Below, one piece after another: positions 44,363 to 59,177 of a DNA stretch of 64,000 nt. Both the position numbers and the translations under genes were made by a program. Numbering within the stretch: position 1 is the stretch's first letter; each line of letters starts with the position of its first letter. The stretch comes from Escherichia phage iGC_PHA_EC001. The stretch lies in the sequence record OR437326.1, one strand, 5' to 3'. The notes below the pieces were generated by a model. That model was given only the letters and a program-made list of their open reading frames with translations, had not been told where the DNA came from and did not search any database.

Positions 44363-44371
44363 GATTGTACA

Positions 44372-44502: not shown

Positions 44503-44922
44503 ATGAACATTAAATCAAATAATCCAGCTTACTCCTTCGATAACGCTTTTTGTCACGGTAGCGCCGCCAAAGGCTTCGAAATCGATGGTAAATTGGTTAT
44601 CGTGAACGTTGACGGGGAAGAGGTTGCAGTGTATCCGGTAAACGATGTTAAAAGCCGTTTACAATGCCGCATGGATGTTACCGCATATCAGCTTGATCCG
44701 GTCCGTGTAGTTGCCCTGGTATTAGAGGAAGAGATCAAAGCAATGCATCATAGCAATAAGTTTATTGGTGACGCGCAGGACAATATGAACGTTTGCCGCC
44801 ATAAAGTTAATGAAGCCTTGAAAGAATGCGGTTTTAAGGATCTGATGATCAAACGTGATGAAAAATTCCGCTTTCGTAATGACCTGGCAAACCGGATCTA
44901 CTCAATCTATGAAGCGTTATAA
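44503..44922 (+). CDS. hypothetical protein (139 aa)
   Basis: ORF-track ORF. Confidence 0.55.
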   Translation: MNIKSNNPAYSFDNAFCHGSAAKGFEIDGKLVIVNVDGEEVAVYPVNDVKSRLQCRMDVTAYQLDPVRVVALVLEEEIKAMHHSNKFIGDAQDNMNVCRHKVNEALKECGFKDLMIKRDEKFRFRNDLANRIYSIYEAL

Positions 44923-44935
44923 TTGACAACAAAAC

Positions 44936-44965
44936 AAGGGGCGCACTAAGCGCCCTTTCTTTTTG
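44936..44965 (+). terminator. rho-independent terminator (repeated family, copy 3)
   Basis: aaggggcgcactaagcgccctt followed by tctttttg. Confidence 0.65.
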
Positions 44966-45926
44966 CCTGAATAATGTTGATAGATTCCGCCTATGGAAAA
45001 CAGACACAGAACAAAACTGAATAAATAGCGGTATCAAGCTAATCAACCATTAAACGAATAACCATACCTCCCAGGGTAACAGGCTGTTAGAGAGCCATTT
45101 ATAGCGGTTAAAATCGATCAACAACCAACAACAAACCATCAAAAACACCCTTTTACCTCCTTTCTAGTGCAATGATAACCATTATCATCTATCCATGTTT
45201 ATCTATGCAATATAAGTGCATAACTATAATGTTGATAATAGTTCGCAACAACTAACTAACCAACAACCTAAAACAATAAGCAAACTAATCATAATCAAAG
45301 GAATAATAGCAAGATGATTGATAACGACAAACAATCAAACCATGATGAATACTAAGCAAGATAACGATAACACGACAAAACAACCAACTAACGAACAATA
45401 ACAAACGAAACCATTAAAATAATAACTATTAGCAAAATAGTGCCTGAATGAAATCATTACAAAACGAATCATTCCCAGGATCATCATTAGCACGCTATGC
45501 CGGACACATAGCGAGCTAATAATAAGCCAACTACACCCCAACAATCATAACCATCGGTGATGGTTATTTCTTGTTACTGCGTAGCTTGCAATAATTGCAA
45601 GCGTAATGACGCTTACACTTATTGCGCTGGCTTATTATTAGCATTATATGTAATTACCAAGATCATAACATTAGCGCAATAACAATAATCATTGTAGTAA
45701 TTACAAGATGAAATCATTAGCAAGATGAATAATTGCACGTAGCAACATGAGCGAATAGCGACAGGTTGCATAGTGTGCACATAGTGTATAAACATACAGG
45801 AAAATAAAGGCTAATCTTTTGGGGGCGAATACTATCGCGTAGCGATATGTTGAGCATCTTCTCTTAAACGTAAATAAAATCAGAAAATTCTTGATTTATT
45901 TTAGTTTTTATGTTAATAAACGTTTA

Positions 45927-45948
45927 AATAATAATCATTCTCATATAA
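45927..45948. promoter_or_regulatory. Fur-box-like palindromic motif, copy R1
   Basis: aataataatcattctcatataa. Confidence 0.3.
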
Positions 45949-46105
45949 ATAATAGTCTGCTTGTCATGAGCGGGATCAGTTGACAATGTTCCGTCATATG
46001 ATGAGGTTGCCAAACCATTGATAAATAAGTGTTTGTGTGATTTATAATCAAGTGGCCCACCTTGTCGCTACGTTGGCATGAGCCTTGCATAAGTCATTGA
46101 ATACG

Positions 46106-46127
46106 AATGATAATTATTCTCATTCGC
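46106..46127. promoter_or_regulatory. Fur-box-like palindromic motif, copy R2
   Basis: aatgataattattctcattcgc. Confidence 0.35.
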
Positions 46128-46466
46128 ATGATATTTGGGAATTGTCGCTGCGTGGACCTGACGGCCCGAAAATTCGCGTTAAGCACTTCTTACGTATGCG
46201 CCATGATTTTTTGCCATATGATATTGATTCTATTAGATATTCTTGCCATGATTGCCATGAAACAGGGTGTGTCGAAATAATCTCTCCCCGTAGATATTTT
46301 GGGTTACTTTTTATACAAGAGTGGGGTGTCAAAAATAATCGGTATATATGGGATAATTGATAGGAATCCCCTATGATAATTCTATTGTAATTCCCTAAGA
46401 TCGATCGTATGATGTTGGTGATTGATGATTGCCATGAAAGATGGCTAACGATGAGAGGAGATTATC

Positions 46467-46871
46467 ATGCAAGAGAGTAAAAATGTTCCGTTGAGTAGTG
46501 CAGAATTGATTCGATTCTACAAAGCATGGATGGCTGATCACTTCAGCATGGATCGCACGAAGAATGGTCTGTGCACTTGTCTTGTAAATTTCCTAGCCTC
46601 AACACTACAACCTGAAAACCCGACAGAGGATCAATGGATAACCTACTTAAAGATACGTAATAAGATTGTAAGAGAGATGAAATCTCAATTTCTTTGTGCT
46701 AACCTGTCTTATGTCTTTCCATTTAATATGGGCTTCCAAGATTATGAAAATGAAGTCAAACACAAAAGGTGTCATGAAAACCAACTACGTGTGCAATGGG
46801 TTAAGGACAGAATTGAAGATTGTTTGAATAATTATGAGGATGTGTTATGCGAACAAAACAAATCTCGTTAA
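46467..46871 (+). CDS. paralog family A member 1 (FY..W..../GLC/CHxN/WVKD signature)
   Basis: LIRFYKAWMADHF..NGLCTCL..PFN..CHENQLRVQWVKDRIEDC. Confidence 0.6.
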   Translation: MQESKNVPLSSAELIRFYKAWMADHFSMDRTKNGLCTCLVNFLASTLQPENPTEDQWITYLKIRNKIVREMKSQFLCANLSYVFPFNMGFQDYENEVKHKRCHENQLRVQWVKDRIEDCLNNYEDVLCEQNKSR

Positions 46872-47212
46872 GTAGTACAATGTTGTTGATGTTTTATAAA
46901 AGGTGGTTGGAAGGAGATACTTCCCTTAATCGCACAGAGCACGGGTTGTGTTTATGTATTAATCATTTTGTGCGAAGTCATTATGCAAAGGATGTGCATA
47001 GTCCCAGATGGTATGATGACATGGCGAACAGCTTGGTATATGAAATGCGCAAGCAATTTGAAGAAGCTGGTCTTTGTGCTATTAATCCATTTAACAAAGA
47101 ATATGCAGATTACTTCTTTGAAGTTGAGAACAAAATGTGTCATCTGAATCCGCTTCGCATTCAGTGGGTGAAAGATCGCATTGAAGATGCAAATAATGCT
47201 TGCATTGAATAA
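46847..47212 (+). CDS. paralog family A member 2
   Basis: MFYKRWLEGD..HGLCLCI..NPFN..CHLNPLRIQWVKDRIED. Confidence 0.6.
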   Translation: MRTKQISLSSTMLLMFYKRWLEGDTSLNRTEHGLCLCINHFVRSHYAKDVHSPRWYDDMANSLVYEMRKQFEEAGLCAINPFNKEYADYFFEVENKMCHLNPLRIQWVKDRIEDANNACIE

Positions 47213-47262
47213 AGATGTTTGTATAATGGATGACATAACAGATAGCCAATGAGGAGATTGAA

Positions 47263-47472
47263 ATGTCAAATATGAAAACTGTATCCTTGTATTTAGCTAA
47301 CACGGATCGTGTGCACACCCTTGCTAATGCAAGTCGTGTACTCGTGCAGTTCCGAAACTTTGCACCGTCCGTTGTGACAGGCAGTGAAACGTGTGTTATC
47401 GATTTCATTAACGAATACTTCCGAGGGAATCCGGTTAGTCGTTACTTTATTAAGGGTCTGAAGGATGCATAA
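47263..47472 (+). CDS. hypothetical protein (69 aa)
   Basis: ORF-track ORF, RBS gaggag. Confidence 0.5.
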   Translation: MSNMKTVSLYLANTDRVHTLANASRVLVQFRNFAPSVVTGSETCVIDFINEYFRGNPVSRYFIKGLKDA

Positions 47473-47473
47473 T

Positions 47474-47695
47474 ATGAAACGCATGAAAATTCGTATTGAG
47501 AATGATGGTGGTTATAAAGGATTGGCACATGCAAAATTTCCACTTGTGCTGGAAGCTACTGTGGAATACAGTGGGCTTGCGCATGTGCGATTCTCGAAGA
47601 TGATGGAAGTGCAGGAATGGTTTTGGGACGAGATAGATGCACGAGAAGGGGAAGATTATGTTTTCTTTCCTCATGAATATAACATTATCTATTAA
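47474..47695 (+). CDS. hypothetical protein, paralog pair B (copy 1)
   Basis: Trimmed to MKRMKIRIEN; paralog of 51415..51636 (MKIR(I/V)..FP/IPFV(L/V)EA..W..E...DYVFF..E.N). Confidence 0.5.
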   Translation: MKRMKIRIENDGGYKGLAHAKFPLVLEATVEYSGLAHVRFSKMMEVQEWFWDEIDAREGEDYVFFPHEYNIIY

Positions 47696-47707
47696 AGGTT
47701 GTGTGCA

Positions 47708-47947
47708 ATGATCACACCACAACAGAATGAAGCAGCAATGGATCTTCTTGATAGTTTGTATTTCGATAATTGGTACTCTGAATGTGAATGGATGAATATG
47801 CAAACTCTGAAAGAGAAGACAGAAGCGTTGATTACAGTAGATCAATTTCTTGCAGAGACGGAAAGAATGAATTATGATATGGCATCTCGCGCACGACGCG
47901 TTTCCATTTTCAATAAAATGTTAGCATTATGGGGAGGTAGAAAATGA
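47708..47947 (+). CDS. hypothetical protein (79 aa)
   Basis: Trimmed to MITPQQNE. Confidence 0.45.
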   Translation: MITPQQNEAAMDLLDSLYFDNWYSECEWMNMQTLKEKTEALITVDQFLAETERMNYDMASRARRVSIFNKMLALWGGRK

Positions 47948-48405
47948 GACAATTCACTATACTGGCAGCTTATGTGCAATGTGTTCACGATTATGTTAGT
48001 GCTCATACAGGTTTGCTGGAAGTTAATAGTAAAATTGAAGGCAATATGGGTACTGTCTGTGTGCAACATACTTTATCCAATGTGCCGTTTAAAGTGTTCA
48101 CTGTTGTAGCTGCCGATTACAATCGTGTAGATGTGCGTTTCTTGGATCATAATTTTCGTAACGCACTAGATAATATCGAAGATTATCTTCCCGTGAAACC
48201 TTTGTCATTTCCACCGAGTCGTGCAAATAATGTAGTGACAAACCTTAATGAAAGGAATGTGGCTATGCATAAAAAAGTCCGTCAACTGAAAACACTGATG
48301 GAAATGCAAGAAGAGATTGAAAAAGAACTGAAAGAAGATTTTGGTATGCTTCCAAAAGACGCTTTGAAATGGTATGATGAACTAGGAGGAGAAAGTTATG
48401 AATAA
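47944..48405 (+). CDS. hypothetical protein (153 aa)
   Basis: ORF-track ORF. Confidence 0.5.
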   Translation: MRQFTILAAYVQCVHDYVSAHTGLLEVNSKIEGNMGTVCVQHTLSNVPFKVFTVVAADYNRVDVRFLDHNFRNALDNIEDYLPVKPLSFPPSRANNVVTNLNERNVAMHKKVRQLKTLMEMQEEIEKELKEDFGMLPKDALKWYDELGGESYE

Positions 48406-48592
48406 AGGAACTACTGTATATTTAGTAACAAAGAATACCCCAGGCTGGAGCCAATGCAGCACTGTCCCTTACAAGATCTGTGCAACATTAGAACTAGCAC
48501 AACGTGCAGAAGCAGAAGTGGATGCCATGCAATACAGCTATGGTGAGATCATTCCTTTTACTCTTGAACAAGAAGGAGCACATCATGTTTAA
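48398..48592 (+). CDS. hypothetical protein (64 aa), related to C-terminal half of MFK family
   Basis: TTVYLVTKN..CSTVPYKICATLELAQRAEAE resembles C-terminal module of 48585..49040 and 49046..49504. Confidence 0.45.
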   Translation: MNKGTTVYLVTKNTPGWSQCSTVPYKICATLELAQRAEAEVDAMQYSYGEIIPFTLEQEGAHHV

Positions 48593-49040
48593 AGTAGGGT
48601 TTACTTATAAATTCAAAAGCGTTGCTGACCAAGGAGATATGGCAACACATGGCAAAGCAAATATTGCTGTTTGCCAAGCGATTGGAAACGAAGTTTTCAA
48701 AGTTATGAATACAGATGATAAGTATGGGCATGTTCTTGAGTTTTATATCAATGGTACCCTCTATACAGCAGGTGTTACCCCAGGGTTTAATTCGTATACT
48801 TATTTGATTGATAACGAAGAATTTAAATATTTTGAAGAAGTAAAGGAGGAAACAATGGGTAAAGCAGAACCACAGTGGCACGTTGTGATCGTAGAATCAG
48901 AGTGTGTAGATGTTTGTTCTAGTTTTGAAAAAGCTTCTGAAGTCGCTACAAAAGCTAAGAAGGCTTATCCGTCTTCGACGGTTGAGATTTACGCTCGTGT
49001 TGCAGTAGCAAACACCACAACCACTATTGATAAGGAGTAA
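48585..49040 (+). CDS. MFK-family protein (tandem paralog 1 of 3)
   Basis: Trimmed to MFKVGFTYKF (RBS agaaggag). Confidence 0.55.
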   Translation: MFKVGFTYKFKSVADQGDMATHGKANIAVCQAIGNEVFKVMNTDDKYGHVLEFYINGTLYTAGVTPGFNSYTYLIDNEEFKYFEEVKEETMGKAEPQWHVVIVESECVDVCSSFEKASEVATKAKKAYPSSTVEIYARVAVANTTTTIDKE

Positions 49041-49045
49041 AGCCA

Positions 49046-49504
49046 ATGTTCAAAGAAGGTCATGTCTACCGTTTCCAGGATGAAGATTATATGCGACTAT
49101 ATTCTACCTTTGATAACAGTATTGCTGCTATCATTGGAGAGAATTTTTTCGAGGTGTTGAGCACTGATGCAAATGGTAATATCTTGTCAATGGTTGTAAT
49201 AGGTATGAGAGACGGTATTATCACTGCTGGTGACGGGGATCGTTACATAATCAATTCTGCTCATATAGATTATTTTGTTGACGGTGGTATTCGCGGTGGT
49301 CGTGGAAAACCCCAAGAAGAACCTGTTGATACAACAAAAGAAGAGTGGTATGTTGTAATGACTGATGACACCTGTATTTCTGGATTTGAAAGTTATGAAG
49401 AAGCTTTGAAAGAAGCAGCAGAGCATAAAATGGCTAATCCTACAGAAGAGGTTGAAGTTTATAAACGTTTGGTTGTTGCTACCATCGGCGTATCTTTTGT
49501 TTAA
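49046..49504 (+). CDS. MFK-family protein (tandem paralog 2 of 3)
   Basis: MFKEGHVYRF..; C-terminal EWYVVMTDDTCISGFESYEEALKEA matches paralog 1. Confidence 0.55.
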   Translation: MFKEGHVYRFQDEDYMRLYSTFDNSIAAIIGENFFEVLSTDANGNILSMVVIGMRDGIITAGDGDRYIINSAHIDYFVDGGIRGGRGKPQEEPVDTTKEEWYVVMTDDTCISGFESYEEALKEAAEHKMANPTEEVEVYKRLVVATIGVSFV

Positions 49505-49516
49505 AAGGGGAATGTT

Positions 49517-49954
49517 ATGTTTAAAGTTAATGCTGTTTACTGTTTCAAAACTAAAGCTGCCCGTGAAGCTTTCTCTATGATCTCTGATGAAAATTTCAAA
49601 ATGGCAGCTTTGATTGAAGGGTCTTGTTTCCGCGTCGAAGATGTTAGTGAATCAGGCTCTGTTTGCTCATTGACTTTATTGGACAGCGGGGATATTATTG
49701 AAGCTGGACAGTATCCGTTCAGAAGTTGGGGGATGTTGTTAGCTCGCGGAGAGCGTAACTTTTTTATGTGCGTGTCTGCGGGGGAAGTTGTGAAAGAAAC
49801 TAAGGATGTTTCTGTTTACAATTCTGAATTTATAAGTTATAGTGAGTATCAACATCTGGAAGGCATTGTTGGTCACTTGTTATCTCTGATTGACATTGAA
49901 TGTGACCTGCCTGAATCATTGAAAGAAGAGTTGAAAGCATTAGATCTGTTATAA
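49517..49954 (+). CDS. MFK-family protein (tandem paralog 3 of 3)
   Basis: MFKVNAVYCF.. N-terminal signature. Confidence 0.5.
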   Translation: MFKVNAVYCFKTKAAREAFSMISDENFKMAALIEGSCFRVEDVSESGSVCSLTLLDSGDIIEAGQYPFRSWGMLLARGERNFFMCVSAGEVVKETKDVSVYNSEFISYSEYQHLEGIVGHLLSLIDIECDLPESLKEELKALDLL

Positions 49955-49981
49955 TGTTTCGCACAACGAAAGGAGAATAAG

Positions 49982-50281
49982 ATGAATCTGACCGAACAGT
50001 TACGCCGTATTGCAAAAGAAGCTTCCTTCAACTTCCCTGTTGAAGAAGTGATCGAGACATGCTTTGCTGAAGCACGAGCGGGAAACTCTTCAAGAAATTT
50101 CACGCCATCTGATTTTGGTCTGAATAATTCTCCCACCCACCCAGAGCAGATCTACAATCAGGTGAAGTGGATGGATGAAGCAGTAGCAATTCTTCGTGAG
50201 CGTGGGCTTATTGTTTATAAAGAAATGGATCTGAACGGGGCATACGAGTGGATCACTATTGATTGGTCCGAGGTGAAATGA
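49982..50281 (+). CDS. hypothetical protein (99 aa)
   Basis: ORF-track ORF. Confidence 0.5.
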   Translation: MNLTEQLRRIAKEASFNFPVEEVIETCFAEARAGNSSRNFTPSDFGLNNSPTHPEQIYNQVKWMDEAVAILRERGLIVYKEMDLNGAYEWITIDWSEVK

Positions 50282-50514
50282 TGAAAGGTAACAAGATGAA
50301 AGTTAATCAAGTGCCTAGCGCATACACTTTGTGGCTTGCGCGAGCGTTACACCAGACGATCAAAGACCCTAAGAAGCCAATGAAGAGTGGGAAGAAGTTT
50401 ATGTCTAAGGGCAAAACAACTTTTGGCTTCACTCGTATGTCTGTTAAGATGAAAAGGTTGGGGTACAAGCCAAACTACGCTCGTTACCCTTCCGAATACA
50501 ACTGGTTTGACTAA
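50278..50514 (+). CDS. hypothetical basic protein (78 aa)
   Basis: ATGA-coupled start; K-rich. Confidence 0.45.
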   Translation: MMKGNKMKVNQVPSAYTLWLARALHQTIKDPKKPMKSGKKFMSKGKTTFGFTRMSVKMKRLGYKPNYARYPSEYNWFD

Positions 50515-50527
50515 AAGGAGAAAGACT

Positions 50528-50704
50528 ATGGCTACTTTTCAACAACTGAAAGATGTTTCACGTTTAGTAAGAAAAATCCGAGAAGCAGACGCTGCTGTGC
50601 GGAATGCATTAACGCCAGCAGAGCGTGAAGATCTTGAAGAGGAGGTGAAAACAGCCGAGAATGCTTTTGCTGTGTATCTTTCAACACTGTATACAGGAGG
50701 TTAA
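50528..50704 (+). CDS. hypothetical protein (58 aa)
   Basis: Trimmed to MATFQQLKD with RBS aaaggagaaag. Confidence 0.45.
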   Translation: MATFQQLKDVSRLVRKIREADAAVRNALTPAEREDLEEEVKTAENAFAVYLSTLYTGG

Positions 50705-51019
50705 ATGTCAGAAGAACTTAAAGAATTTTATCAGGCATATCATAACTGGCTGTTAGCTGGTGCTCCAGATAATAATCCTTTCTGGCATGATAAAGGATTA
50801 TGTAGTTGCCTCTACCTTTGGACTGGAGGTTATGATGATCTAAATTATGAAATGCAAATGCAATTCCGTGAGGCAGGATTGTCTGAAGAATACCCGTTTG
50901 ATGAAGGAGACTGGTTTAAATATGATTTTGCACAAAGAAACGGGCTATTGCATTTGAATGCTGCCCGTATAAAATGGGTAAAAGACCATGCTACACAGGA
51001 GGATGTGCAATGCCAATAG
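50705..51019 (+). CDS. paralog family A member 3
   Basis: EFYQAYHNWLLAGAPDNNPF..KGLCSCL..YPFDEG..LHLNAARIKWVKDH. Confidence 0.6.
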   Translation: MSEELKEFYQAYHNWLLAGAPDNNPFWHDKGLCSCLYLWTGGYDDLNYEMQMQFREAGLSEEYPFDEGDWFKYDFAQRNGLLHLNAARIKWVKDHATQEDVQCQ

Positions 51020-51210
51020 TGTTTAGTTTCTTAGTAATTGTTATGATTGTTCTTTTCGCGGCATGGCTTTGGGATTTTGACCCAGGAGCAGCGCAGCAAA
51101 GAGCTACAGACTGGAAAGAACAATGTATTGTGCTCAAACATGAACGAAATGCGGAGAAATTTCTTGACCTAGAGTGTGATCGCCTTGTAAGATACAAGCA
51201 AGATAAATAA
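51010..51210 (+). CDS. small membrane protein (66 aa)
   Basis: Trimmed to MPIVFSFLVIVMIVLFAAWLW (TM helix), RBS aggagg. Confidence 0.45.
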   Translation: MPIVFSFLVIVMIVLFAAWLWDFDPGAAQQRATDWKEQCIVLKHERNAEKFLDLECDRLVRYKQDK

Positions 51211-51212
51211 CC

Positions 51213-51413
51213 TTGAGGTGCAAAATGGTAATTGAGATTAAACTTGAATATGCTGGGGCTGTTGCCCTGATCGCACAAATGTTGGGAGCAAAGATTGAAG
51301 AAGTGTGTATCAATGCCTGGAGTGTAGAGATTAATGTTCCTATGGATAACATTGCTAATCGCTTGCTGGTAGCAGAGTGTGAACGCACCAACATAATCTA
51401 CAAAGGAGCATAA
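51213..51413 (+). CDS. hypothetical protein (66 aa)
   Basis: ORF-track ORF. Confidence 0.45.
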   Translation: MRCKMVIEIKLEYAGAVALIAQMLGAKIEEVCINAWSVEINVPMDNIANRLLVAECERTNIIYKGA

Positions 51414-51414
51414 T

Positions 51415-51636
51415 ATGAAAATTAGAGTTTGTGATGTATTGGGTTATGTTGGTTTTGAGAATGTTCAGATTCCTTTTGTTGTTGAAGCACATCTTGTTAG
51501 CGATGACATGACAACATTCTTTGTTACGATAGAAGAAATGTCCAAAGTTGAGGGATGGGAGTGGTTTGAAGAAGATGTTTGGGAAGGTTGTGATTACGTA
51601 TTTTTCTCTGATGAAGTGAATGTTCTTTCGGAGTAG
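51415..51636 (+). CDS. hypothetical protein, paralog pair B (copy 2)
   Basis: Paralog of 47474..47695. Confidence 0.5.
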   Translation: MKIRVCDVLGYVGFENVQIPFVVEAHLVSDDMTTFFVTIEEMSKVEGWEWFEEDVWEGCDYVFFSDEVNVLSE

Positions 51637-51638
51637 GT

Positions 51639-51845
51639 ATGTCTCGTTTTACAAAAGCAGTGTCCATATGTAAGAAACAGTATGAAAGTGATTACGGAAT
51701 ATTTAATATTCCAGTGGATCATACGAAGTATTGTTCATGTGGTGGCAGAATGAAGAAAACAGTGATTTATGCGGATAGTGGAGACGAACTTGTTCCGGTT
51801 ATGGTTTGCAAAGCTTGTCATTCTGTTAAAACATTAAAAGCGTAA
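51639..51845 (+). CDS. hypothetical Cys-rich protein (68 aa)
   Basis: C..C....CSCGG..and CKACH pairs suggest zinc ribbon. Confidence 0.45.
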   Translation: MSRFTKAVSICKKQYESDYGIFNIPVDHTKYCSCGGRMKKTVIYADSGDELVPVMVCKACHSVKTLKA

Positions 51846-51849
51846 GGAG

Positions 51850-51915
51850 TCGGGACACCCGACGATTGGAGCTAAAAATTTTGCGTACAACCCTTTCCGC
51901 CCAACAGGGGCGCGT
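51850..51915 (+). other. structured GC-rich leader/terminator region
   Basis: gtcgggacacccgac hairpin and cgcccaacaggggcg hairpin between genes. Confidence 0.3.
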
Positions 51916-51940
51916 CGGGTAAATAAAGAGGAGAGTTTAT

Positions 51941-52339
51941 ATGAAAAAGATCATCGTAGGTTTCTTGTTACTCATTGCATCACTTGGAACAGCAAATGCG
52001 TCTCAAGTTTATGAGTGTGTGTCAGATGTGGTTGTTAAAAATCTGAAAGGTGAAGTGATTTCTGGTCCTAAGAAAATGGCTTCTGTTGTCATTAATAAAG
52101 ATAACTCCTTTATCCTTAAAAATTCAGGTGGTGCTTTGATGAGTGGCATTCTGCAATACACAGGAGAAAAAAGTAAAGATGGTAGTGCTATGTATGGTTC
52201 ACAACAATTTATTGGCACTACTGAAGTTGTGATGATGCGCACAGAGTATCGAGACACTTTGGCTTGGTTTGCATTTCTAAAAAATGATAAAACAATAACG
52301 AATGTTCTTACTCTAGAAGCTGATTGTACGCAACGATAA
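51941..52339 (+). CDS. secreted protein with signal peptide (132 aa)
   Basis: MKKIIVGFLLLIASLGTANA leader. Confidence 0.55.
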   Translation: MKKIIVGFLLLIASLGTANASQVYECVSDVVVKNLKGEVISGPKKMASVVINKDNSFILKNSGGALMSGILQYTGEKSKDGSAMYGSQQFIGTTEVVMMRTEYRDTLAWFAFLKNDKTITNVLTLEADCTQR

Positions 52340-52348
52340 GGGGGATTT

Positions 52349-52804
52349 ATGACTAAAATGAGACATTACGCTGTAAACTGCAACGATGCTTGGTGTTTGT
52401 GTCCTGATGATCCGACAGAAGGCACATTTGTAAGATATGAGGATTATAAAGAGTTATCGGATGCTGTGATCGCATTGTTAACTGATATCCGTTCACGTTA
52501 TCCAGGACAAGATTTCACTTGCCCTCACATCAAACTTCTTGCCCTTCTGGTAGAAGGGGAGGAACAAGTGGAAGATGGCTTCAAGCGTGTAGAGTATCAA
52601 GGTGAAACTTTAGAGGTTCCTGAATTTGTTAATTATATTGCAACAGATTCGAATGGCGAGCGTTATGGTTACAGTCATAAACCGGAGATTCCAGATTTCG
52701 CTTATGCGTGGCGTATTCCTTATCAAGTTTTTAATGCTGCGGATTACTGGTATTTAGGAGAAGGAGATAGCCGTAATTGGCGTGACTCCTTGGCTCAGGT
52801 TTAA
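52349..52804 (+). CDS. hypothetical protein (151 aa)
   Basis: ORF-track ORF. Confidence 0.5.
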   Translation: MTKMRHYAVNCNDAWCLCPDDPTEGTFVRYEDYKELSDAVIALLTDIRSRYPGQDFTCPHIKLLALLVEGEEQVEDGFKRVEYQGETLEVPEFVNYIATDSNGERYGYSHKPEIPDFAYAWRIPYQVFNAADYWYLGEGDSRNWRDSLAQV

Positions 52805-52808
52805 TACT

Positions 52809-53072
52809 ATGAAAGAAACATTACCAGCAGCCTACCGTCTGAATGATGAACGTATTTGGGAGTGGACCGACGTTTCTTGTTTTTACCCTGAAATAGTTCA
52901 ATATTGGCGAGCGAAAGGGTGTGTTGTAGTTATCAACCCTTGTGGACCAGTAGATGAAGATTGCTTGTATCTCGATGGAAAGTGGCACAGTTATTGTCGC
53001 TGGCCTTTTGAGTGGATGTGTAAAGAAGATCTACCAGAGAGTTGGGAGTATCCAAAAGCAAATAGGAGATAA
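52809..53072 (+). CDS. hypothetical protein (87 aa)
   Basis: Trimmed to MKETLPAAY; start uncertain. Confidence 0.4.
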   Translation: MKETLPAAYRLNDERIWEWTDVSCFYPEIVQYWRAKGCVVVINPCGPVDEDCLYLDGKWHSYCRWPFEWMCKEDLPESWEYPKANRR

Positions 53073-53073
53073 T

Positions 53074-53436
53074 ATGTCTAAAGATTTTGTTGAAGTATTT
53101 GTCAAAGATGAAGAAACTGGTTTAGGCACGGGTTTCATTTGTGAAGAAACTTTTAAGCGTGAACAAGAAAAAGCTATTCTTATGCACCGCTATGATCATG
53201 CACTAGAACAATGGAAAAATGCAGAACAAAAATGCAAAAACCTTTACGCAGAAAATAGAAAACTACAAGATCAAATGGAGTTGTTAGCTATCAGTTTACG
53301 ATCTCTCATTTTGGCTGTAGAAGATGGCTTTAAAAATCCAGATGGTTTTCCTGTGAGCGATATTGAACATGATTTGTATCTTGCTCGTGGTGCTTACTTC
53401 TATGTTAAACAGAAGTGTGTAGAAGGAGAGAAGTGA
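53074..53436 (+). CDS. hypothetical coiled-coil protein (120 aa)
   Basis: Trimmed to MSKDFVEVF with RBS aggagat. Confidence 0.5.
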   Translation: MSKDFVEVFVKDEETGLGTGFICEETFKREQEKAILMHRYDHALEQWKNAEQKCKNLYAENRKLQDQMELLAISLRSLILAVEDGFKNPDGFPVSDIEHDLYLARGAYFYVKQKCVEGEK

Positions 53437-53633
53437 TGGAAGAAAAACTGGAACGTATTATCGAGTTAGCCATGTCTATTGGCTACGACGATTGTTTTCT
53501 CCAAACTATTGGAGAAACACAGAACGATTACGACTCTTGGGTGAAAGAGTTGGAAGAACTCAAAACTTCCTTGATTGCTGACTTTGCTGAAGCAGAGGAT
53601 AAAGCAGATCGTTACAACCATCTGTGTCGATAA
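53436..53633 (+). CDS. hypothetical protein (65 aa)
   Basis: Trimmed to MEEKLERIIEL, RBS gaaggagag. Confidence 0.45.
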   Translation: MEEKLERIIELAMSIGYDDCFLQTIGETQNDYDSWVKELEELKTSLIADFAEAEDKADRYNHLCR

Positions 53634-53636
53634 GCC

Positions 53637-53666
53637 TTGACATTTATTTTATGTATGGTGTACATT
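53637..53666 (+). promoter_or_regulatory. sigma70-like promoter
   Basis: ttgaca-N18-tacatt upstream of gene 53692. Confidence 0.4.
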
Positions 53667-53691
53667 ATCAACGTGAGCAAGGTGGTGTAAT

Positions 53692-53964
53692 ATGAATAAA
53701 GATCGGTTTCTTTCTTTAGTCGCGGAAGCGCCTTTTGATGTTCTTGGGGTGAGATTATGGAAAGACAGAAACTATGGGTTAGATGTTCAAACATACTCTC
53801 TTTGGTTGGTTGGGGAGCACAGCTTAGATGAAAGCTTGTGCATGGGTAGGGATTCTCGTTCCCTCTGTTTAAAGTTCAGAAGCTTAGAACGCGCAAACAA
53901 AGAGCAAGAAAAACTAACGAGGTGGCTAAATGAAAACAAGCGCAAGGTTGATGGAGTTTTATAA
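53692..53964 (+). CDS. hypothetical protein (90 aa)
   Basis: ORF-track ORF. Confidence 0.5.
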   Translation: MNKDRFLSLVAEAPFDVLGVRLWKDRNYGLDVQTYSLWLVGEHSLDESLCMGRDSRSLCLKFRSLERANKEQEKLTRWLNENKRKVDGVL

Positions 53965-54256
53965 AATTTATCTAGCATGGATTGATGTTGGTGCTCCTGA
54001 TGGTAAACCTTTTCGGCGGGATTGCGGTTTGTGTGCCAACTTATTCGACTATGTGCACGCGGATGGCTACAATCCCCTTATAACAACCTTGTCAGATGAA
54101 ATGCACGCACAGTTTTACCACAAAGGGTTGAGTCAAGAATTACCCTTCAATGAGAACTACGATGCATATGTCTTAGAATCAGATGCAGAGGTATGTCACC
54201 TGAATGTGGACAGGATTAATTGGGTAAGAGATTGTATTGCAGAGGAGGATGAATAA
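53930..54256 (+). CDS. paralog family A member 4
   Basis: EFYKIYLAWIDVGAPDGKPF..CGLCANL..LPFNEN..CHLNVDRINWVRD. Confidence 0.6.
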   Translation: MKTSARLMEFYKIYLAWIDVGAPDGKPFRRDCGLCANLFDYVHADGYNPLITTLSDEMHAQFYHKGLSQELPFNENYDAYVLESDAEVCHLNVDRINWVRDCIAEEDE

Positions 54257-54426
54257 TGTCGGATTATAACTGGTATGAACTTGAGGCTGTTTGTCAGTTT
54301 TATGACTCAATAGTTCTGCGTGATCCAATCTGTCAAGAATTGAGTCGCCGTGCAAGTGCATTGGCAATCCGTGTTAAAATAAACGGTTGGAACGCAGATT
54401 TGGAAAAGAGTTGGAATTTCTCTTAG
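54256..54426 (+). CDS. hypothetical small protein (56 aa)
   Basis: Own translation MSDYNWYELEAVCQFYDSIVLRDPICQELSRR..; TAATG coupling. Confidence 0.4.
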   Translation: MSDYNWYELEAVCQFYDSIVLRDPICQELSRRASALAIRVKINGWNADLEKSWNFS

Positions 54427-54478
54427 AAAACACGCGGGTCTTCCGCAAAGTGTTCCCTGAATGGTTTGAGATGGAAGA

Positions 54479-54697
54479 ATGATCATGTGGATTGTGCGTC
54501 TTAAGTATGATGGCAAGTTTCCGTGGGAGAAAGATGTTTGTGCTTGTGATTCGGCAGCACATGCCAAAGCAGCGGGTCAGGCAGTAGTTGACATGTATAA
54601 CAACACTTCCGTTGATCCAGAAATGGCAGGTGTTACAATGAGCATGTTCACTTACTATTCTTTTGAGGTTTACTATCATGAAGGAGAGTGGAAATGA
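54479..54697 (+). CDS. hypothetical protein (72 aa)
   Basis: ORF-track ORF. Confidence 0.45.
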   Translation: MIMWIVRLKYDGKFPWEKDVCACDSAAHAKAAGQAVVDMYNNTSVDPEMAGVTMSMFTYYSFEVYYHEGEWK

Positions 54698-55014
54698 GCG
54701 AAGAACTATTAACATTTTACCGCACGTATTTGGCATGGTTGGAAGCTGGTGCTCCTGAAGGCGAACCGTTCACCCGTTGCACAGGTTTGTGCTCGAACCT
54801 CTATGATTTTTACGATATGGGTGAAAGCGAACGATACGAACCCGTACTGGATGAAATGCATGAACAGTTCTACCACAAAGATTTGGTTATGGTGTTGCCT
54901 TTCAACAGTAATTTTGGAAAGTACACCTTAGAAGCGGAAAAAAGCCGTTGTCATTTGAATGTGGATCGTGTGAACTGGGTAAAAGAACGTGTAGCAGAAG
55001 AAATAAATAGTTGA
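54694..55014 (+). CDS. paralog family A member 5
   Basis: Trimmed to MSEELLTFYRTYLAWLEAGAPEGEPF..TGLCSNL..LPFNSN..CHLNVDRVNWVKE. Confidence 0.6.
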   Translation: MSEELLTFYRTYLAWLEAGAPEGEPFTRCTGLCSNLYDFYDMGESERYEPVLDEMHEQFYHKDLVMVLPFNSNFGKYTLEAEKSRCHLNVDRVNWVKERVAEEINS

Positions 55015-55039
55015 CAGAAGGATCTGTCTTTGTCATAAT
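55011..55039 (+). promoter_or_regulatory. sigma70-like promoter with palindrome over -35
   Basis: ttGACAGAaggaTCTGTCtttgt cataat. Confidence 0.45.
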
Positions 55040-55068
55040 CATCTCATCGAAACAAAGAGGAGAAAATC

Positions 55069-55482
55069 ATGAAAAAGTTTATTTGCACCCGTTCCACTAA
55101 CAGTGATATCCTTGTAGGTAAGGTTATCAAAGGAGAACTCTTCCATGCAAACGGTAAGAAATATATTCTGCTGAAAGATTCTTTCAACGGGGAATATCCG
55201 CGCTGCACTTTCTTCAATTACAACACTCCATTTGCTTTAGAAGGAGATGCTTGGGACTGGGCTGAACTCAATCCTTGTTGTGAAGAAGAAGAATCTATGT
55301 TCTCAGGTTTAAACGTTTACCGTGTAGATTACACCATGTGCGGAGCGGAACATTCTGTTCGCGTAGAAGCCGAATCCAAGCTACAAGCACCTTTCAAGGC
55401 GGGATTGACTTTGGGTCATTGTTTGGCAAACATTGAAGATGTTGTGATCCAAAGAGTTGTTTTAGAGAAAGAGGCTATTTGA
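55069..55482 (+). CDS. hypothetical protein (137 aa)
   Basis: ORF-track ORF, RBS aagaggag. Confidence 0.55.
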   Translation: MKKFICTRSTNSDILVGKVIKGELFHANGKKYILLKDSFNGEYPRCTFFNYNTPFALEGDAWDWAELNPCCEEEESMFSGLNVYRVDYTMCGAEHSVRVEAESKLQAPFKAGLTLGHCLANIEDVVIQRVVLEKEAI

Positions 55483-55507
55483 CAGAAAACGGTGCAATAT
55501 TTAAAAT
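55479..55507 (+). promoter_or_regulatory. sigma70-like promoter
   Basis: ttgaca-N17-taaaat. Confidence 0.45.
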
Positions 55508-55535
55508 ATAAAGATTAACCACAAAAGGAGAGAAA

Positions 55536-55835
55536 ATGCAAGTTGAAGACCTGATCCAGATTCTGAATAAAGCCAAAGAGAAGGGTGCTATCAAAGACTG
55601 GAAACGTGAAACGAGTGAAGACCTATCTCACTGTTGCCGAGAATTTTACATCGAAGGTATTGCTGACGATCATTATATTATCGAATGGTATATCAACTTA
55701 ATGACTCTTAAGCACGGTTCGTTTGAGATTTGGTTTGATGACATTGATGTAAATGGTTTTCATCCTGGCTATAAAATCGCTATGCAGTTGTCTTATCGTA
55801 GAGAAGTTGTAGCACATTTGGGTTTACATAACTAA
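55536..55835 (+). CDS. hypothetical protein (99 aa)
   Basis: ORF-track ORF, RBS aaaggagag. Confidence 0.55.
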   Translation: MQVEDLIQILNKAKEKGAIKDWKRETSEDLSHCCREFYIEGIADDHYIIEWYINLMTLKHGSFEIWFDDIDVNGFHPGYKIAMQLSYRREVVAHLGLHN

Positions 55836-55845
55836 GGAGAAAAGA

Positions 55846-56169
55846 ATGGAAGCAGTTGTTAACGAAGCTATTATGAACTTATCCTTCTTGTTAGCTGGTT
55901 TAGGAGGTGTTCTCATAGGTTTGGCTCTTATCTGGTGTATTCGTCGATTAATCGGGTACCGACAAAAAGGTGTTTCATGTTTTGTATCTTACAATTTTAC
56001 AACTGCTTACAGCAATGAAGTTGGATCTGGTAATGCTCAAGCATTTTTACCAACATATCCTCCTACGGTGGAGGATATTCGAAACTTGGAAGTAGAACTT
56101 ATGGGACTAGGTGATAACTATACATCTCTAGTTATTCAAAATATTTTTCGACTAAAACAGGAGGCGTGA
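55846..56169 (+). CDS. membrane protein (107 aa)
   Basis: TM helix LSFLLAGLGGVLIGLALIWCI. Confidence 0.5.
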   Translation: MEAVVNEAIMNLSFLLAGLGGVLIGLALIWCIRRLIGYRQKGVSCFVSYNFTTAYSNEVGSGNAQAFLPTYPPTVEDIRNLEVELMGLGDNYTSLVIQNIFRLKQEA

Positions 56170-56382
56170 ATGAAGGTACATTACCCTCATCCCTTTGATC
56201 CTAAAAACAAAGCCGTAATTCTTCGTCAGTGGCAACGGATTTGTCGTACTAAATGTCCAATCAATAGCCCACACAATGTAGACAAGGACTATCTTGGGAC
56301 ATTTGTTGAATACACTTACATAGACAAAAACAAGCGTAAACAACATGTCGAGGAATACTGCTTAAGAGTAGAATGGCTGTAA
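56170..56382 (+). CDS. hypothetical protein (70 aa)
   Basis: ORF-track ORF. Confidence 0.45.
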   Translation: MKVHYPHPFDPKNKAVILRQWQRICRTKCPINSPHNVDKDYLGTFVEYTYIDKNKRKQHVEEYCLRVEWL

Positions 56383-56394
56383 ATAATAAATACC

Positions 56395-56423
56395 TTGACA
56401 AGTGTTTATTCGTTTTGTAAAGT
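56395..56423 (+). promoter_or_regulatory. sigma70-like promoter
   Basis: ttgaca-N17-taaagt upstream of recombinase gene. Confidence 0.4.
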
Positions 56424-56452
56424 GAGAATACAGCAATAGTTTAGGAGTGGTT

Positions 56453-57124
56453 ATGAAAAAGTTTGTTGTTTACAGTCGTCTTTCTAAACAGAAAAAAGGT
56501 GAGGCACAATATGGTATGGAGAGCCAAGAGAATGATATCCGTTACTTCTTAGACTCTGTGCCTGATGCGGAAGTTATTGGTCAATTTTCTGAATACTATT
56601 CGGGTAAGGGCGATTGGAAGCAACGTAAGGAACTGGTTAAAGCGGTTGAAATGTGTAAAGCTACCGGAGCAACTTTATTGGTAGCTAAAGTTGACCGCTT
56701 GGGTCGTAACAACGCCTCCGTAGCAACTCTTCTAGAAATGATCGATGTTAAGATAGCCATCATGCCAGACGCAGATAAAATGGTTATACAGCTTCTGTCT
56801 GTTCTGGCTGAACAAGAAGTTAGAGGTATTGCTGATCGTATTAAAAAGGGTCTTGCTGTAGCAAAAAGCAAAGGTGTTTTATTAGGCAGTGCTAATCCTA
56901 AAACTGCCGCTGCACGTAGAAAAGGAAAAATGGAATACAACTCTGTTAAAGCAGACGCTTTTGCAGAGACATTCCGTGAACGCTTGGAGATCCTTAGAGA
57001 TTTAAATACACCTTACAAAACTATTGCTGAAAAATTCAATAGTAAGAAAATAGCAACAGCACGTGGTGGTAAATGGGATGCTAAAACTGTTTCTCGTTTG
57101 TGTGCCAGACTGAACATTAAATAG
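56453..57124 (+). CDS. serine recombinase (resolvase/invertase family)
   Basis: Trimmed to MKKFVVYSRLSKQ; catalytic-domain motifs YSRLS..Q....GMESQ and TLLVAKVDRLGRN; C-terminal HTH-like region. Confidence 0.75.
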   Translation: MKKFVVYSRLSKQKKGEAQYGMESQENDIRYFLDSVPDAEVIGQFSEYYSGKGDWKQRKELVKAVEMCKATGATLLVAKVDRLGRNNASVATLLEMIDVKIAIMPDADKMVIQLLSVLAEQEVRGIADRIKKGLAVAKSKGVLLGSANPKTAAARRKGKMEYNSVKADAFAETFRERLEILRDLNTPYKTIAEKFNSKKIATARGGKWDAKTVSRLCARLNIK

Positions 57125-57132
57125 GAGAGGAT

Positions 57133-57555
57133 ATGAAACAAGAAAATGAATCTGTAGATCACTTAATCATGCTGTCAGCCCTTTTTGCCGGATGGGACGT
57201 ATTTTTTGAAAATTTGTTCAATTCTGCTACAGATGGTTCCGATTTTATGCGCCAGTTTAAACGACGAACTGTTGAGGACTATGCTTTCTATTCAGGTCTG
57301 ATTGAAAAAGGTTACGAAGATACAAATACAACACTCACCATTAAAGTTTTAGATGTGATGTTTAGTGTTATAGATGCTATCGACGAAAGTCTTCCGATCC
57401 TAGACAATTGTAATACGAAAGCCTATGTTTACAAAATAGCTCGTGCTTATGTGTCTGCAAACAGTTGTCTTCTTTCCACCCAGATTGCCGTGAACAATCT
57501 TGCCAACTTGTTCGATGAAGGAGAAACTTTTTATGACAATCGATTTGAAGTGTAA
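57133..57555 (+). CDS. hypothetical protein (140 aa)
   Basis: ORF-track ORF. Confidence 0.5.
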   Translation: MKQENESVDHLIMLSALFAGWDVFFENLFNSATDGSDFMRQFKRRTVEDYAFYSGLIEKGYEDTNTTLTIKVLDVMFSVIDAIDESLPILDNCNTKAYVYKIARAYVSANSCLLSTQIAVNNLANLFDEGETFYDNRFEV

Positions 57556-57898
57556 GAGGATTCTTTTAGATTTCTATAATAATTGGTTAGAACACCTCCG
57601 TCTCTTTCCAAGAGAAAGTGGTTACGCTGATGTTGGCTTATGCCGAGGTCTACGTATGTATATAAGTGATGAATTTCGGGCTGAGCATTCTTTAGCATAT
57701 TCTGTTTATGGTATGCAATTAGCCAGTTTTGAAAACGCTGGCTTAGATACAACTTTCCCATTTAACACAGCAAAATCTTTTGAGCAAGAGTGTAAGGAAA
57801 AACGTTGCATGTTTAATGAAAAACGTGTACAGTGGGTTAAGGATCAAGTTAAACAACTGGAACAAGAGTTGGATTTCTTCTATGATGAGGCAGAATAA
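57533..57898 (+). CDS. paralog family A member 6
   Basis: Trimmed to MTIDLKCKRILLDFYNNWL..VGLCRGL..FPFN..CMFNEKRVQWVKDQ. Confidence 0.55.
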   Translation: MTIDLKCKRILLDFYNNWLEHLRLFPRESGYADVGLCRGLRMYISDEFRAEHSLAYSVYGMQLASFENAGLDTTFPFNTAKSFEQECKEKRCMFNEKRVQWVKDQVKQLEQELDFFYDEAE

Positions 57899-58170
57899 TG
57901 GATAGACAAACCTTAAAAACAATGGCAGATGCCACTAATTCCCCATACTTTGAAAAAGTAAGTAAATTGGTAGCTCAAGCCGCAGAGGAAGGATATTATA
58001 ACATAAACATCCACAACCCAAGTCTTATACTAGAAATGCCAGGTGATAAGAAGATACAAGAGAGTATCTGTGAAGGTATTGTTAGTTACTGGCGCGAGCG
58101 TGGGTGTGGTGCAAACATGGCTTTAGACAGTGCAAACGTTGTAAGATATATAAATATTTCTTGGGGGTGA
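57898..58170 (+). CDS. hypothetical protein (90 aa)
   Basis: ORF-track ORF. Confidence 0.5.
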   Translation: MDRQTLKTMADATNSPYFEKVSKLVAQAAEEGYYNINIHNPSLILEMPGDKKIQESICEGIVSYWRERGCGANMALDSANVVRYINISWG

Positions 58171-58211
58171 TTTTATGATTCAATGCACTCATATCCAAAT
58201 TACTTGGAGAG

Positions 58212-58787
58212 ATGAACTTTACCATTTGGGGGCAATTTACTGTAGGGGAAACATACCCTATCATTAAACATAATCCTAACATCGCAAACTTTGACAGGAT
58301 GGTTCTTGTTGAGGACGATCTGGGTCAAACTTATTCTTTAGATCTAAAATATCCGTTTTCTTACGGCTACGATTGGATCGTTACTTTTGAAGACGTGGAG
58401 GAAAATAAAACAATGAACGAAAAAAATTCTTGGTATTATCGTTGTGAACTGCCGCCAGTAGGTGAAAAGGTTATCTTTGTTCCTGATTTGGAAAGATATT
58501 CTTGGGAAAGTTCTTATTCTGTTCCTAAAGAAGGCACCGAAGTTGAAGTTATTGCACATCGCACAACTTCGCATGGTAACGATGTAGCAGTTGTTTTCTG
58601 GGATGATGAAGGCGCTGCTTGTGCAGGTGGCTTTGTTGCAGGTAATTTTGAACCCCTGCCAGATCCTTTGAAGGAGGCAATTTTAGGCGTAGCTTCTTTT
58701 GGACTCTCTTACACATCTGCACAAGAGATCGTGGAAGGTATTTTAAACGGTACCGTTCCAAACGAAATTTTTAAACAGATTAAATAA
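58212..58787 (+). CDS. hypothetical protein (191 aa); start uncertain
   Basis: ORF-track ORF; well-placed RBS precedes an out-of-frame ATG at about 58175. Confidence 0.5.
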   Translation: MNFTIWGQFTVGETYPIIKHNPNIANFDRMVLVEDDLGQTYSLDLKYPFSYGYDWIVTFEDVEENKTMNEKNSWYYRCELPPVGEKVIFVPDLERYSWESSYSVPKEGTEVEVIAHRTTSHGNDVAVVFWDDEGAACAGGFVAGNFEPLPDPLKEAILGVASFGLSYTSAQEIVEGILNGTVPNEIFKQIK

Positions 58788-58793
58788 TAGTTG

Positions 58794-58815
58794 CACCCCG
58801 TTCTGCGGGGTGTTA
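58794..58815 (+). terminator. terminator hairpin
   Basis: caccccg-ttct-gcggggtg then ttattg. Confidence 0.5.
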
Positions 58816-58838
58816 TTGTATATGTAAAGGAGGCGCTA

Positions 58839-59177
58839 ATGTATTACACTGAAGACTACATACTGTATAACTTTTTTAAAGGTTGGTTGAAATGGGCGGA
58901 ACAAGCTCCTGTCGGAGATTGTGTTTTTCCTTGGGATTCTCGTCAAGGTTTGTGTCGTTGTTTGGAAGATTGGCTTATAACCACAAACTACAATTCAGAA
59001 ACTAAGAAATCTACATCAAACAGATTAAAAATGTTATTTGAAGAAGATGGTTTAGATCCAATTTATCCTTTCGGTGAGGAAAGTTTCCACAATGGTCTTT
59101 TCCTTGGCACTCAACATTATGATAAAGATCGCGTAGATTGGGTAAAAGAAAAGGTAGCACAGTATGAATGGGGTTAA
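58839..59177 (+). CDS. paralog family A member 7
   Basis: Trimmed to MYYTEDYILYNFFKGWLKWAE..QGLCRCL..YPFGEE..DKDRVDWVKE, RBS aaaggagg. Confidence 0.55.
   Translation: MYYTEDYILYNFFKGWLKWAEQAPVGDCVFPWDSRQGLCRCLEDWLITTNYNSETKKSTSNRLKMLFEEDGLDPIYPFGEESFHNGLFLGTQHYDKDRVDWVKEKVAQYEWG

Follow-up and report, generated by a model that had tools for sequence, protein, structure and literature searches.

Why should one virulent phage carry seven diverged copies of a single small gene within 13 kb of its genome, and what might the products of these genes do? The question is raised by a stretch of 64,000 nucleotides from Escherichia phage iGC_PHA_EC001 (OR437326.1), referred to here as the window, in which a first-pass annotation, made from the letters alone, had pointed to seven plus-strand open reading frames (ORFs) between positions 46467 and 59177 and had likened them to rapidly evolving host-interaction or anti-defence gene families. 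Our analysis indicates that the seven genes are true paralogs from a large phage-specific family to which no function has been assigned. The reading that we tentatively favour, at a probability of about 0.45, is that they encode non-essential early accessory proteins, soluble and helical, that bind host factors in the service of takeover or counter-defence, probably as dimers and with targets that differ between paralogs. Within this reading, we infer that the genes are expressed early, that the proteins act by binding and form dimers, and that their targets are host factors.

The seven genes, called m1 to m7, are given below, where the head locus is the site of the tandem pair m1/m2, phrog_2510 is the PHROG profile hidden Markov model (HMM) that all seven match, and pN/pS is the ratio of non-synonymous to synonymous differences per site, pooled over pairs of relatives that are not phylogenetically independent.

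46467-46871, plus strand: m1, 134 amino acids, first gene of the head locus; long insert between helices 2 and 3; overlaps m2 by 25 nt; phrog_2510 E 6e-21; ribosome-binding site gagaggag.
46847-47212, plus strand: m2, 121 amino acids, second gene of the head locus; 43% identical to m1.
50705-51019, plus strand: m3, 104 amino acids, the shortest canonical copy; phrog_2510 E 7e-29; 98-99% conserved in nine relatives; pN/pS 0.03.
53930-54256, plus strand: m4, 108 amino acids, canonical and nearest the family consensus, the protein that was modelled; phrog_2510 E 2e-31; pN/pS 0.19.
54694-55014, plus strand: m5, 106 amino acids, canonical; 51% identical to m4; 95-100% conserved in relatives.
57533-57898, plus strand: m6, 121 amino acids, degenerate, without E57, Q61 and H90; phrog_2510 E 3e-26; pN/pS 0.12.
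58839-59177, plus strand: m7, 112 amino acids, degenerate, without E57, Q61, N74 and E83 and with N92 changed to D; phrog_2510 E 6e-27; pN/pS 0.07.

All seven ORFs exist at the proposed starts, and each ATG is preceded, 5-10 nt upstream, by a Shine-Dalgarno-like motif, with genes of the same length called in related phages. The proteins align over their full length at 23-51% pairwise identity, and a chance resemblance of motifs was rejected on the basis of the pairwise BLASTP comparisons (E 2e-5 to 1e-40) and the phrog_2510 matches (E 6e-21 to 2e-31). When an HMM built from the seven was run against the window translated in six frames, nothing but these seven was retrieved, the next match having E = 0.41, and an all-versus-all BLASTP comparison of the 148 window ORFs found this to be the sole large paralog set, the other families being three pairs. 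The impression that seven copies in 13 kb are unusual was therefore borne out, and because the genome beyond the window (the remaining ~100 kb, scanned in the close relative DE16) holds no further copies, the family is confined to the 13 kb block. Among the shared motifs described in the first-pass annotation, FY..(Y/W)..W, GLC, PF(N/D/G) and H.N..R..WV are real, but the cysteine of its "CH" motif is not conserved and m6 has methionine in place of the histidine.

The matches to phrog_2510 (E 6.4e-21 to 1.9e-31) cover profile positions ~4-113, and weaker ones were obtained to phrog_6418 and phrog_27059. As the phrog_2510 profile has 219 positions, of which only 4-113 are matched, it seems to have been built partly from two-domain fusions. 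In phage anhysbys, genes 108, 109, 122, 133, 136, 143 and 146 are tagged as pVOG VOG7392; these correspond in position to m1-m7 and are orthologous to them, with identities of 94-99% for m3-m7 and ~50% for the head alleles. Both the family and, implicitly, its seven-fold paralogy are thus already catalogued (phrog_2510/VOG7392), without an assigned name, function or structure. The proteins do not map to any well-characterised domain in Pfam (best matches of 13-18 bits, against cut-offs of 25-29), in NCBIfam and PADLOC (zero matches) or in a sequence-profile search of the PDB (none), and the distant homologues likewise carry no Pfam domain, except for one DUF551 fusion partner. In the literature, nothing was found on phrog_2510, on VOG7392, on the function of N4 gp3, or on such paralogs in papers on rV5, phi92 and phAPEC8.

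A wider search with HMMER, exhaustive over 1.84 billion representative proteins and with clusters drawn at 50% identity, revealed a large homologous family of 2,069 clusters at E ≤ 1e-3 and 1,137 at E ≤ 1e-10; a word-indexed protein search, even with a query of 128 sequences, returned only close relatives. The family is phage-specific and widespread among phages of Proteobacteria. It was found in 257 deposited phage records, whose hosts include Escherichia, Klebsiella, Salmonella, Erwinia, Rhizobium, Achromobacter, Burkholderia, Delftia and Ralstonia, and its carriers comprise N4-like, T7-like and rV5/phi92-like phages, siphoviruses and one phage-plasmid, the only plasmid record with the family being phage-plasmid-like in gene content. 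Natural variants include two- and three-copy fusions, a DUF551 fusion and versions with an N-terminal transmembrane segment (for example, the distant homologues P0047 and P0146), and DUF551, itself of unknown function, is the sole foreign fusion partner found. Phage PTXU04 has three tandem copies, and the T7-like Rhizobium phage RHEph08 has a single-domain gene beside a two-domain fusion. In Escherichia phage Bas79 (PQ850629.1), a clear member at 3893-4294 on the plus strand (HMM E 5e-32) is unannotated, and the annotated ORF that overlaps it on the opposite strand, Bas79_0090, is probably a mis-call.

The position of these genes in phage genomes is the first clue to their role. In N4-like and T7/phiKMV-like genomes, the family gene usually lies within the first 1-4 kb, that is, in the early region. 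Coliphage N4 gp3 is itself a member (E 1.5e-21 with the broad family HMM; tblastn E 4e-5, 32% identity) and is located between gp2 and the RNAPII genes, in the early operon transcribed by the injected virion RNA polymerase (RNAP) (PMC4496689). N4 differs in having a single copy, compared with seven in this phage, and its early genes depend on the injected virion RNAP, whereas the family lies here in a context of σ70-type promoters. The immediate neighbours are not informative, since the contexts in N4, RHEph08, PTXU04, Bas79 and the phage-plasmid are all blocks of small hypothetical genes.

By megablast, the window belongs to Phapecoctavirus (Stephanstirmvirinae), the phAPEC8 group of ~150 kb Escherichia coli myoviruses, and shares 96-98% identity with phages dw-ec, ASO2A and DE16. 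Its minus-strand left arm carries replication and nucleotide-metabolism genes (primase-helicase, NrdD, UvrD-type helicase, TelA and TerC), and at ~29.6 kb, with a flip in GC skew and a switch of coding strand, begins a long plus-strand block of small genes that holds the 46.4-59.2 kb region. The σ70 consensus TTGACA-N16-18-TAnnnT occurs at 29 sites in the window, compared with 4.4 ± 2.4 expected, and none of 100 shuffled sequences reached 29. Seventeen of the sites lie on the plus strand at 31-44.5 kb (31239-44457), in an array with about one site per small gene in which many sites end in TAAGAT or TAAACT, and four lie inside the family block. The individual sites noted in or beside that block are as follows.

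53637-53666, plus strand: σ70-type promoter-like site TTGACA-N18-TACATT, upstream of m4 and m5.
55479: similar σ70-type site, upstream of the invertase gene, m6 and m7.
56395: similar σ70-type site, also upstream of the invertase gene, m6 and m7.
60428: similar σ70-type site.

Such a density of sites is the usual signature of an early region transcribed by the host RNAP and, as far as sequence can indicate, points to early expression of the block.

The second clue is that homologues are dispensable. The CRISPR interference method CRISPRi-ART was used to screen PTXU04 transcriptome-wide, and its three tandem homologues, PTXU04_00085, 00086 and 00087, in whose printed sequences the FY..Y..W, GLC, PF and R..WVK motifs can be read, were all scored "Not Fit" and listed as "unknown" by HHpred (PMC11879866, supplementary files 8 and 16). 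Single-copy knockdown therefore did not impair PTXU04 on its laboratory host, which is consistent with either a conditionally useful accessory function or redundancy among paralogs. Together with the variation in family copy number across the genus, from six to nine, the three "Not Fit" homologues account for our view of these proteins as accessory. The resemblance to host-interaction or anti-defence genes held up in part: an accessory host-interaction role is the most plausible one because of the early location in many phages, the σ70 enrichment and the dispensability of homologues. For an anti-defence or host-takeover function, the support given by early location, dispensability in PTXU04 and the variable head locus is indirect.

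The supposed rapid evolution of the family, in contrast, was found at only one locus. Across nine relatives, the m3-m7 proteins are 93-100% identical, the same as the neighbouring genes, with the exception of m4 in ZCKP1, whose best match is only 50% identical, so that m4 is apparently absent there. The comparison of substitution rates across related phages that the first-pass annotation had suggested was made as pN/pS, with m5 left out because it had no full-length ungapped pairs, and gave 0.03 for m3, 0.19 for m4, 0.12 for m6 and 0.07 for m7, compared with 0.02-0.26 for neighbouring genes. Copies m3, m4, m6 and m7 are under ordinary purifying selection, and values of 0.03-0.19 also mean that the measured genes are functional. 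The idea that all copies evolve fast was accordingly rejected, and the stable copies are old paralogs rather than fast-evolving genes. At a larger distance, the divergent Phapecoctavirus phiWec188 (LC739537.1, 4848-20911) has nine copies, of which only those of m4 (82%) and m5 (98%) are orthologous to window copies. A turnover specific to the family was rejected in this case, as the non-family genes of its early block are equally mosaic relative to the window.

This stability does not extend to the m1/m2 head locus, the protein of which is only ~50% identical in seven of nine relatives, with flanking genes 97-100% identical. One copy is present in DE16, ASO2A, PNJ1809-36, Ro121lw and SF1-1, two in this window, ZCKP1, ETEC-TG and anhysbys, and three in dw-ec. 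Comparison by blastn revealed that the middle of the locus is replaced between two conserved anchors.

46200-46590, plus strand: 5' DNA anchor, comprising the upstream region and about the first 40 codons; 90-97% identity by blastn in all relatives.
47137-47500, plus strand: 3' DNA anchor, comprising about the last 25 codons of m2 and downstream sequence; 76-95% identity by blastn in relatives.

The 31 head-locus alleles fall into at least six classes, with a median pairwise identity of 48% and a minimum of 34%. The C-terminal tail ...WVKDRIEDANNACIE is shared across allele classes, a single body occurs with alternative tails in several alleles, and in the mosaic allele P0017 an N-terminal half from one class is fused, at the conserved AGLDYN-PFN motif, to a C-terminal half from a different class. 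None of the alleles has lost the residues that are invariant across the family. Together these features mark the locus as a recombining cassette of variable copy number, in which alleles would be swapped by recombination at the conserved end sequences and motifs, and the arms-race-like character of the locus follows from its one to three copies, at least six allele classes, median identity of 48% and mosaics such as P0017. Viral genes for host range or antagonism, such as poxvirus K3L, can form tandem arrays of variable copy number, known as "gene accordions". The head locus is similar to these in having one, two or three tandem copies among near-identical genomes and diverged, recombining alleles, but unlike recent amplifications of identical copies, its copies are old and diverged (~35-55% identity).

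The same patterns could be read as a matter internal to phages, with the proteins serving as regulators or chaperones of early processes, or acting in competition between co-infecting related phages, where superinfection exclusion or immunity would drive the diversity of head-locus alleles. The strong purifying selection and the stable retention of m3-m7 among close relatives would suit either version, and allele classes that segregate among near-identical phages are what would be expected of incompatibility determinants. However, the PTXU04 homologues are dispensable for plaque formation, and a family that spans N4-like, T7-like and rV5/phi92-like phages, siphoviruses and a phage-plasmid is unlikely to have a common internal partner; we consider both versions distinctly unlikely.

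The structural evidence bears on how host-factor binding, the reading that we favour, might be achieved. Structure prediction with AlphaFold2 from an alignment of 20 sequences yielded a confident model of m4 (predicted local distance difference test score, pLDDT, 95; predicted template-modelling score, pTM, 0.86), which is a plain, all-helical five-helix bundle with helices at residues 5-19, 34-42, 50-64, 77-85 and 93-107. The predicted fold has no solved relative, since a Foldseek search of 350,542 PDB chains gave a best match with E 2.6 and a template-modelling (TM) score of 0.28; against predicted viral structures, only uncharacterised phage proteins were matched, with TM scores of up to 0.87. 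A natural two-domain fusion was modelled at pLDDT 94 and pTM 0.80, and therefore its two domains have a defined packing in the model. The existence of natural two- and three-copy fusions, together with this pTM, suggests that single-domain members may act as dimers. The 25-nt overlap of m1 and m2 is in line with such an arrangement, and so is the closeness of m4 and m5, which are each other's closest paralogs and are located close together. Four copies are acidic (isoelectric point 4.6-4.7) and m1 and m2 are near neutral, which argues against DNA binding.

From these elements, a working model can be drawn. The proteins would be made early, from a block transcribed by the host RNAP, and would be small proteins that bind host factors stoichiometrically in the host cytoplasm, working probably as homo- or heterodimers, with each paralog probably having its own target specificity. 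The conserved aromatic and polar core (FY..Y..W, G-L-C, E..Q, P-F-N and H.N..R..W) would hold the fold or form a common site, leaving the loop between helices 1 and 2, the insert between helices 2 and 3, and helix 4 free to vary. The head locus would then represent a rapidly re-assorting specificity cassette.

What the conserved core is for was considered in an alignment of 143 diverse members, numbered here as in m4. Residues G33, C35, P72, F73 and W98 are invariant (143 of 143), and L34 (141) and R95 (142) are nearly so. Conservation of 81-99% was found at S4, L7, F10, Y11, W17, L38, E57 (87%), Q61 (92%), F62, L67, Y80, H90 (81%), N92 (91%) and V99, and of 60-76% at Y14, G21, A22, F28, R30, N37, M58, A65, G66, N74 and E83. 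The polar signature E57, Q61, H90, N92 and R95 is kept in m1-m5. The HEPN RNase motif R-x(4-6)-H was tried as an explanation and rejected, as the order of the residues is reversed and the fold does not match.

The conserved cysteine and histidine positions had led to the proposal, in the first-pass annotation, of a small metal-binding fold. Invariant C35, H90 and a C89 kept by five of the seven copies in the window could be taken as ligands of a zinc site, which acidic E57 and E83 could complete, but the pattern of conservation does not support the proposal. C35, in the GLC motif, is the sole invariant cysteine; C89, the cysteine of the "CH" motif, is found in 49% of the family and is replaced by leucine in m3 and glutamine in m7, and position 90 is methionine in m6, so that m3, m6 and m7 each lack one proposed ligand, where a zinc-binding Cys/His fold would have three or four conserved ones. 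In addition, the regular five-helix bundle is predicted at pLDDT 95 without any metal, the structure search found no similarity to zinc-binding folds, and no Pfam zinc finger was matched. A zinc fold is therefore very improbable.

Alternatively, the domain might be a small enzyme of new fold, in which the invariant cysteine at the N-terminus of helix 2 would be the nucleophile, assisted by H90, N92, E57, Q61 and R95. Such an enzyme might modify a macromolecule of the host or phage, or a metabolite, with the variable surfaces of the paralogs setting substrate specificity. A cysteine that follows a glycine at the start of a helix is a common setting for reactive cysteines. C35 has this position in the model, and besides the conservation just described, all head-locus alleles and both halves of the natural fusions retain the signature residues while everything else varies. 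However, m6 lacks E57, Q61 and H90, and m7 lacks E57, Q61, N74 and E83, yet both are under purifying selection; P0161, one of the top 150 homologues, has GLK instead of GLC; 100 amino acids without β-structure would be small for a Cys-His enzyme; and the structure search found no fold similarity to any enzyme. On balance, catalysis is unlikely.

Similarly, W98, R95, N92, Q61 and aromatic residues might line a conserved pocket in oligomeric small-molecule sponges like Tad1, Tad2 and Acb2, which would sequester host immune signalling nucleotides or some other metabolite. The family is indeed one of small, early, dispensable and phage-specific proteins with conserved tryptophan, arginine, asparagine, glutamine and aromatic residues, and the two- and three-copy fusions and the pTM of 0.80 for the fused pair hint at oligomerisation. 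Known sponges, however, are normally single-copy, in contrast to the six to nine diverged copies of this family. Several of the residues proposed for the pocket are missing from two copies, and there is no structural similarity to the sponges solved in the PDB. We regard a sponge as quite improbable.

The binding of host factors by accessory proteins remains our preferred reading, and several points weigh against it. The invariance of G-L-C, P-F and W98 and the near-invariance of R95, with polar residues (E57, Q61, N74, E83, H90 and N92) conserved at 73-92%, would be more typical of a catalytic or ligand site than of a pure binding scaffold, and the invariant Cys/Arg/Trp and the conserved polar set may possibly form a real ligand or active site. 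For no member of the family has a function been established by experiment, and partners for binding are neither known nor predicted. The "Not Fit" scores in a laboratory host are also expected from paralog redundancy. Furthermore, fast evolution is not seen in those stable copies that were measured, and because in more distant comparisons turnover affects the early block as a whole, only one locus carries an arms-race signal. If the conserved site (Cys35, Arg95 and Trp98 with Glu57, Gln61, His90 and Asn92) in this unrecognised fold is genuine, the family could constitute a class of early phage effectors not seen before. Its members would be small cysteine-dependent enzymes or else adaptors that use the invariant site to dock onto one conserved host machine and hypervariable surfaces to recruit different host (defence) proteins; we hold this to be unlikely. 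Were it true, the six to nine paralogs and the shuffling head cassette would amount to a built-in repertoire of specificities, in a family of >2,000 clusters from proteobacterial phages.

Several well-known small helical inhibitors and sponges of solved structure, including T4 AsiA, Acb2, Tad2, DNA mimics of the Ocr/ArdA type and colicin-immunity-like bundles, are ~100 amino acids long, early, often acidic or oligomeric, and dispensable on permissive hosts. The seven proteins resemble proteins of the AsiA, Acb2, Tad2 and Ocr type in size and early context, and functionally they resemble a broad known kind, the small early accessory proteins of virulent phages. They are not similar, in fold or in sequence, to anti-defence proteins of solved structure (Acb2, Tad1/2, Gad1, Ocr, ArdA and the Acr families).

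The family is of interest as a large, uncharacterised and phage-specific one of >2,000 clusters, absent from Pfam and without a solved relative, that occupies the early region of virulent phages that differ widely, among them the model phage N4 and therapeutic-type coliphages. It also comes with natural experimental handles, namely seven diverged copies in one genome, five of them canonical and two without the full polar signature, and head-locus alleles that differ by ~50% between phages otherwise 97-100% identical and so form a natural allele series, while N4 gp3 offers an entry point in a model phage. The wide distribution, the confident fold without a solved relative, the strict invariant signature and the natural alleles all recommend it for further work. 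If the family proves to be a counter-defence or takeover module, it would help to explain host-range differences among near-identical therapeutic phages and would provide a new anti-defence fold; if it is only a redundant scaffold, it would be an ordinary example of the dark matter of phage early regions.

Other features of the window were recorded along the way. Within the family block, the elements are as follows.

48504-49040 and 49046-49504, plus strand: second tandem paralog pair (E 1e-14), the first member of which is swapped for alleles of 27-45% identity in four relatives.
47263-47695 and 52349-52804: ORFs that are also variable among otherwise near-identical phages.
50974-51210, plus strand: small ORF for a predicted membrane-spanning peptide, overlapping the 3' end of m3; with the transmembrane segments of P0047 and P0146, a hint of a possible link to membranes.
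55013-55028: hairpin that follows m5, with a promoter-like site at 55011-55039.
56453-57124, plus strand: serine recombinase/invertase between family copies (Pfam Resolvase, E 5e-18).
58793-58813: terminator-like hairpin that precedes m7, annotated as a terminator in ASO2A.

The invertase is the most constrained gene of the early block, its protein being 100% identical in nine of nine relatives despite 62 synonymous differences (pN = 0). Directly upstream of m1 lies an ORF-free gap of ~1.5 kb (44900-46460), in or beside which DE16, dw-ec, Ro121lw and other deposited relatives have been linearised. The gap, perhaps a terminus of the genome or a region with a regulatory role, matches nothing in Rfam and contains only weak direct and inverted repeats, with no convincing RNA element or repeat. 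Outside the family block, the following genes were noted.

2933-3877 and 3885-4871, minus strand: glycosyltransferase-like tandem paralogs (E 7e-75 to each other).
10710-11822, minus strand: TelA-like gene of tellurite-resistance type.
14035-15009, minus strand: TerC-like gene of the same type.
32300-33490, plus strand: AAA/STAND-like ATPase, at the start of the early block.
33532-34740, plus strand: protein with three CapR homology domains (Pfam PF21817, E 1e-22), next to the ATPase.

The two tellurite-resistance-type genes occur here in a virulent phage, and a TerD family protein is annotated nearby in DE16. Finally, the coliphage block has matches of ~96-97% identity in records that name Campylobacter, Acinetobacter, Pseudomonas or Klebsiella as the phage host, for example MG065650.1 ("Campylobacter phage B15") and OP562383.1 ("Acinetobacter phage vB_AbaM_ABPW7"), and at least some of these labels are doubtful.

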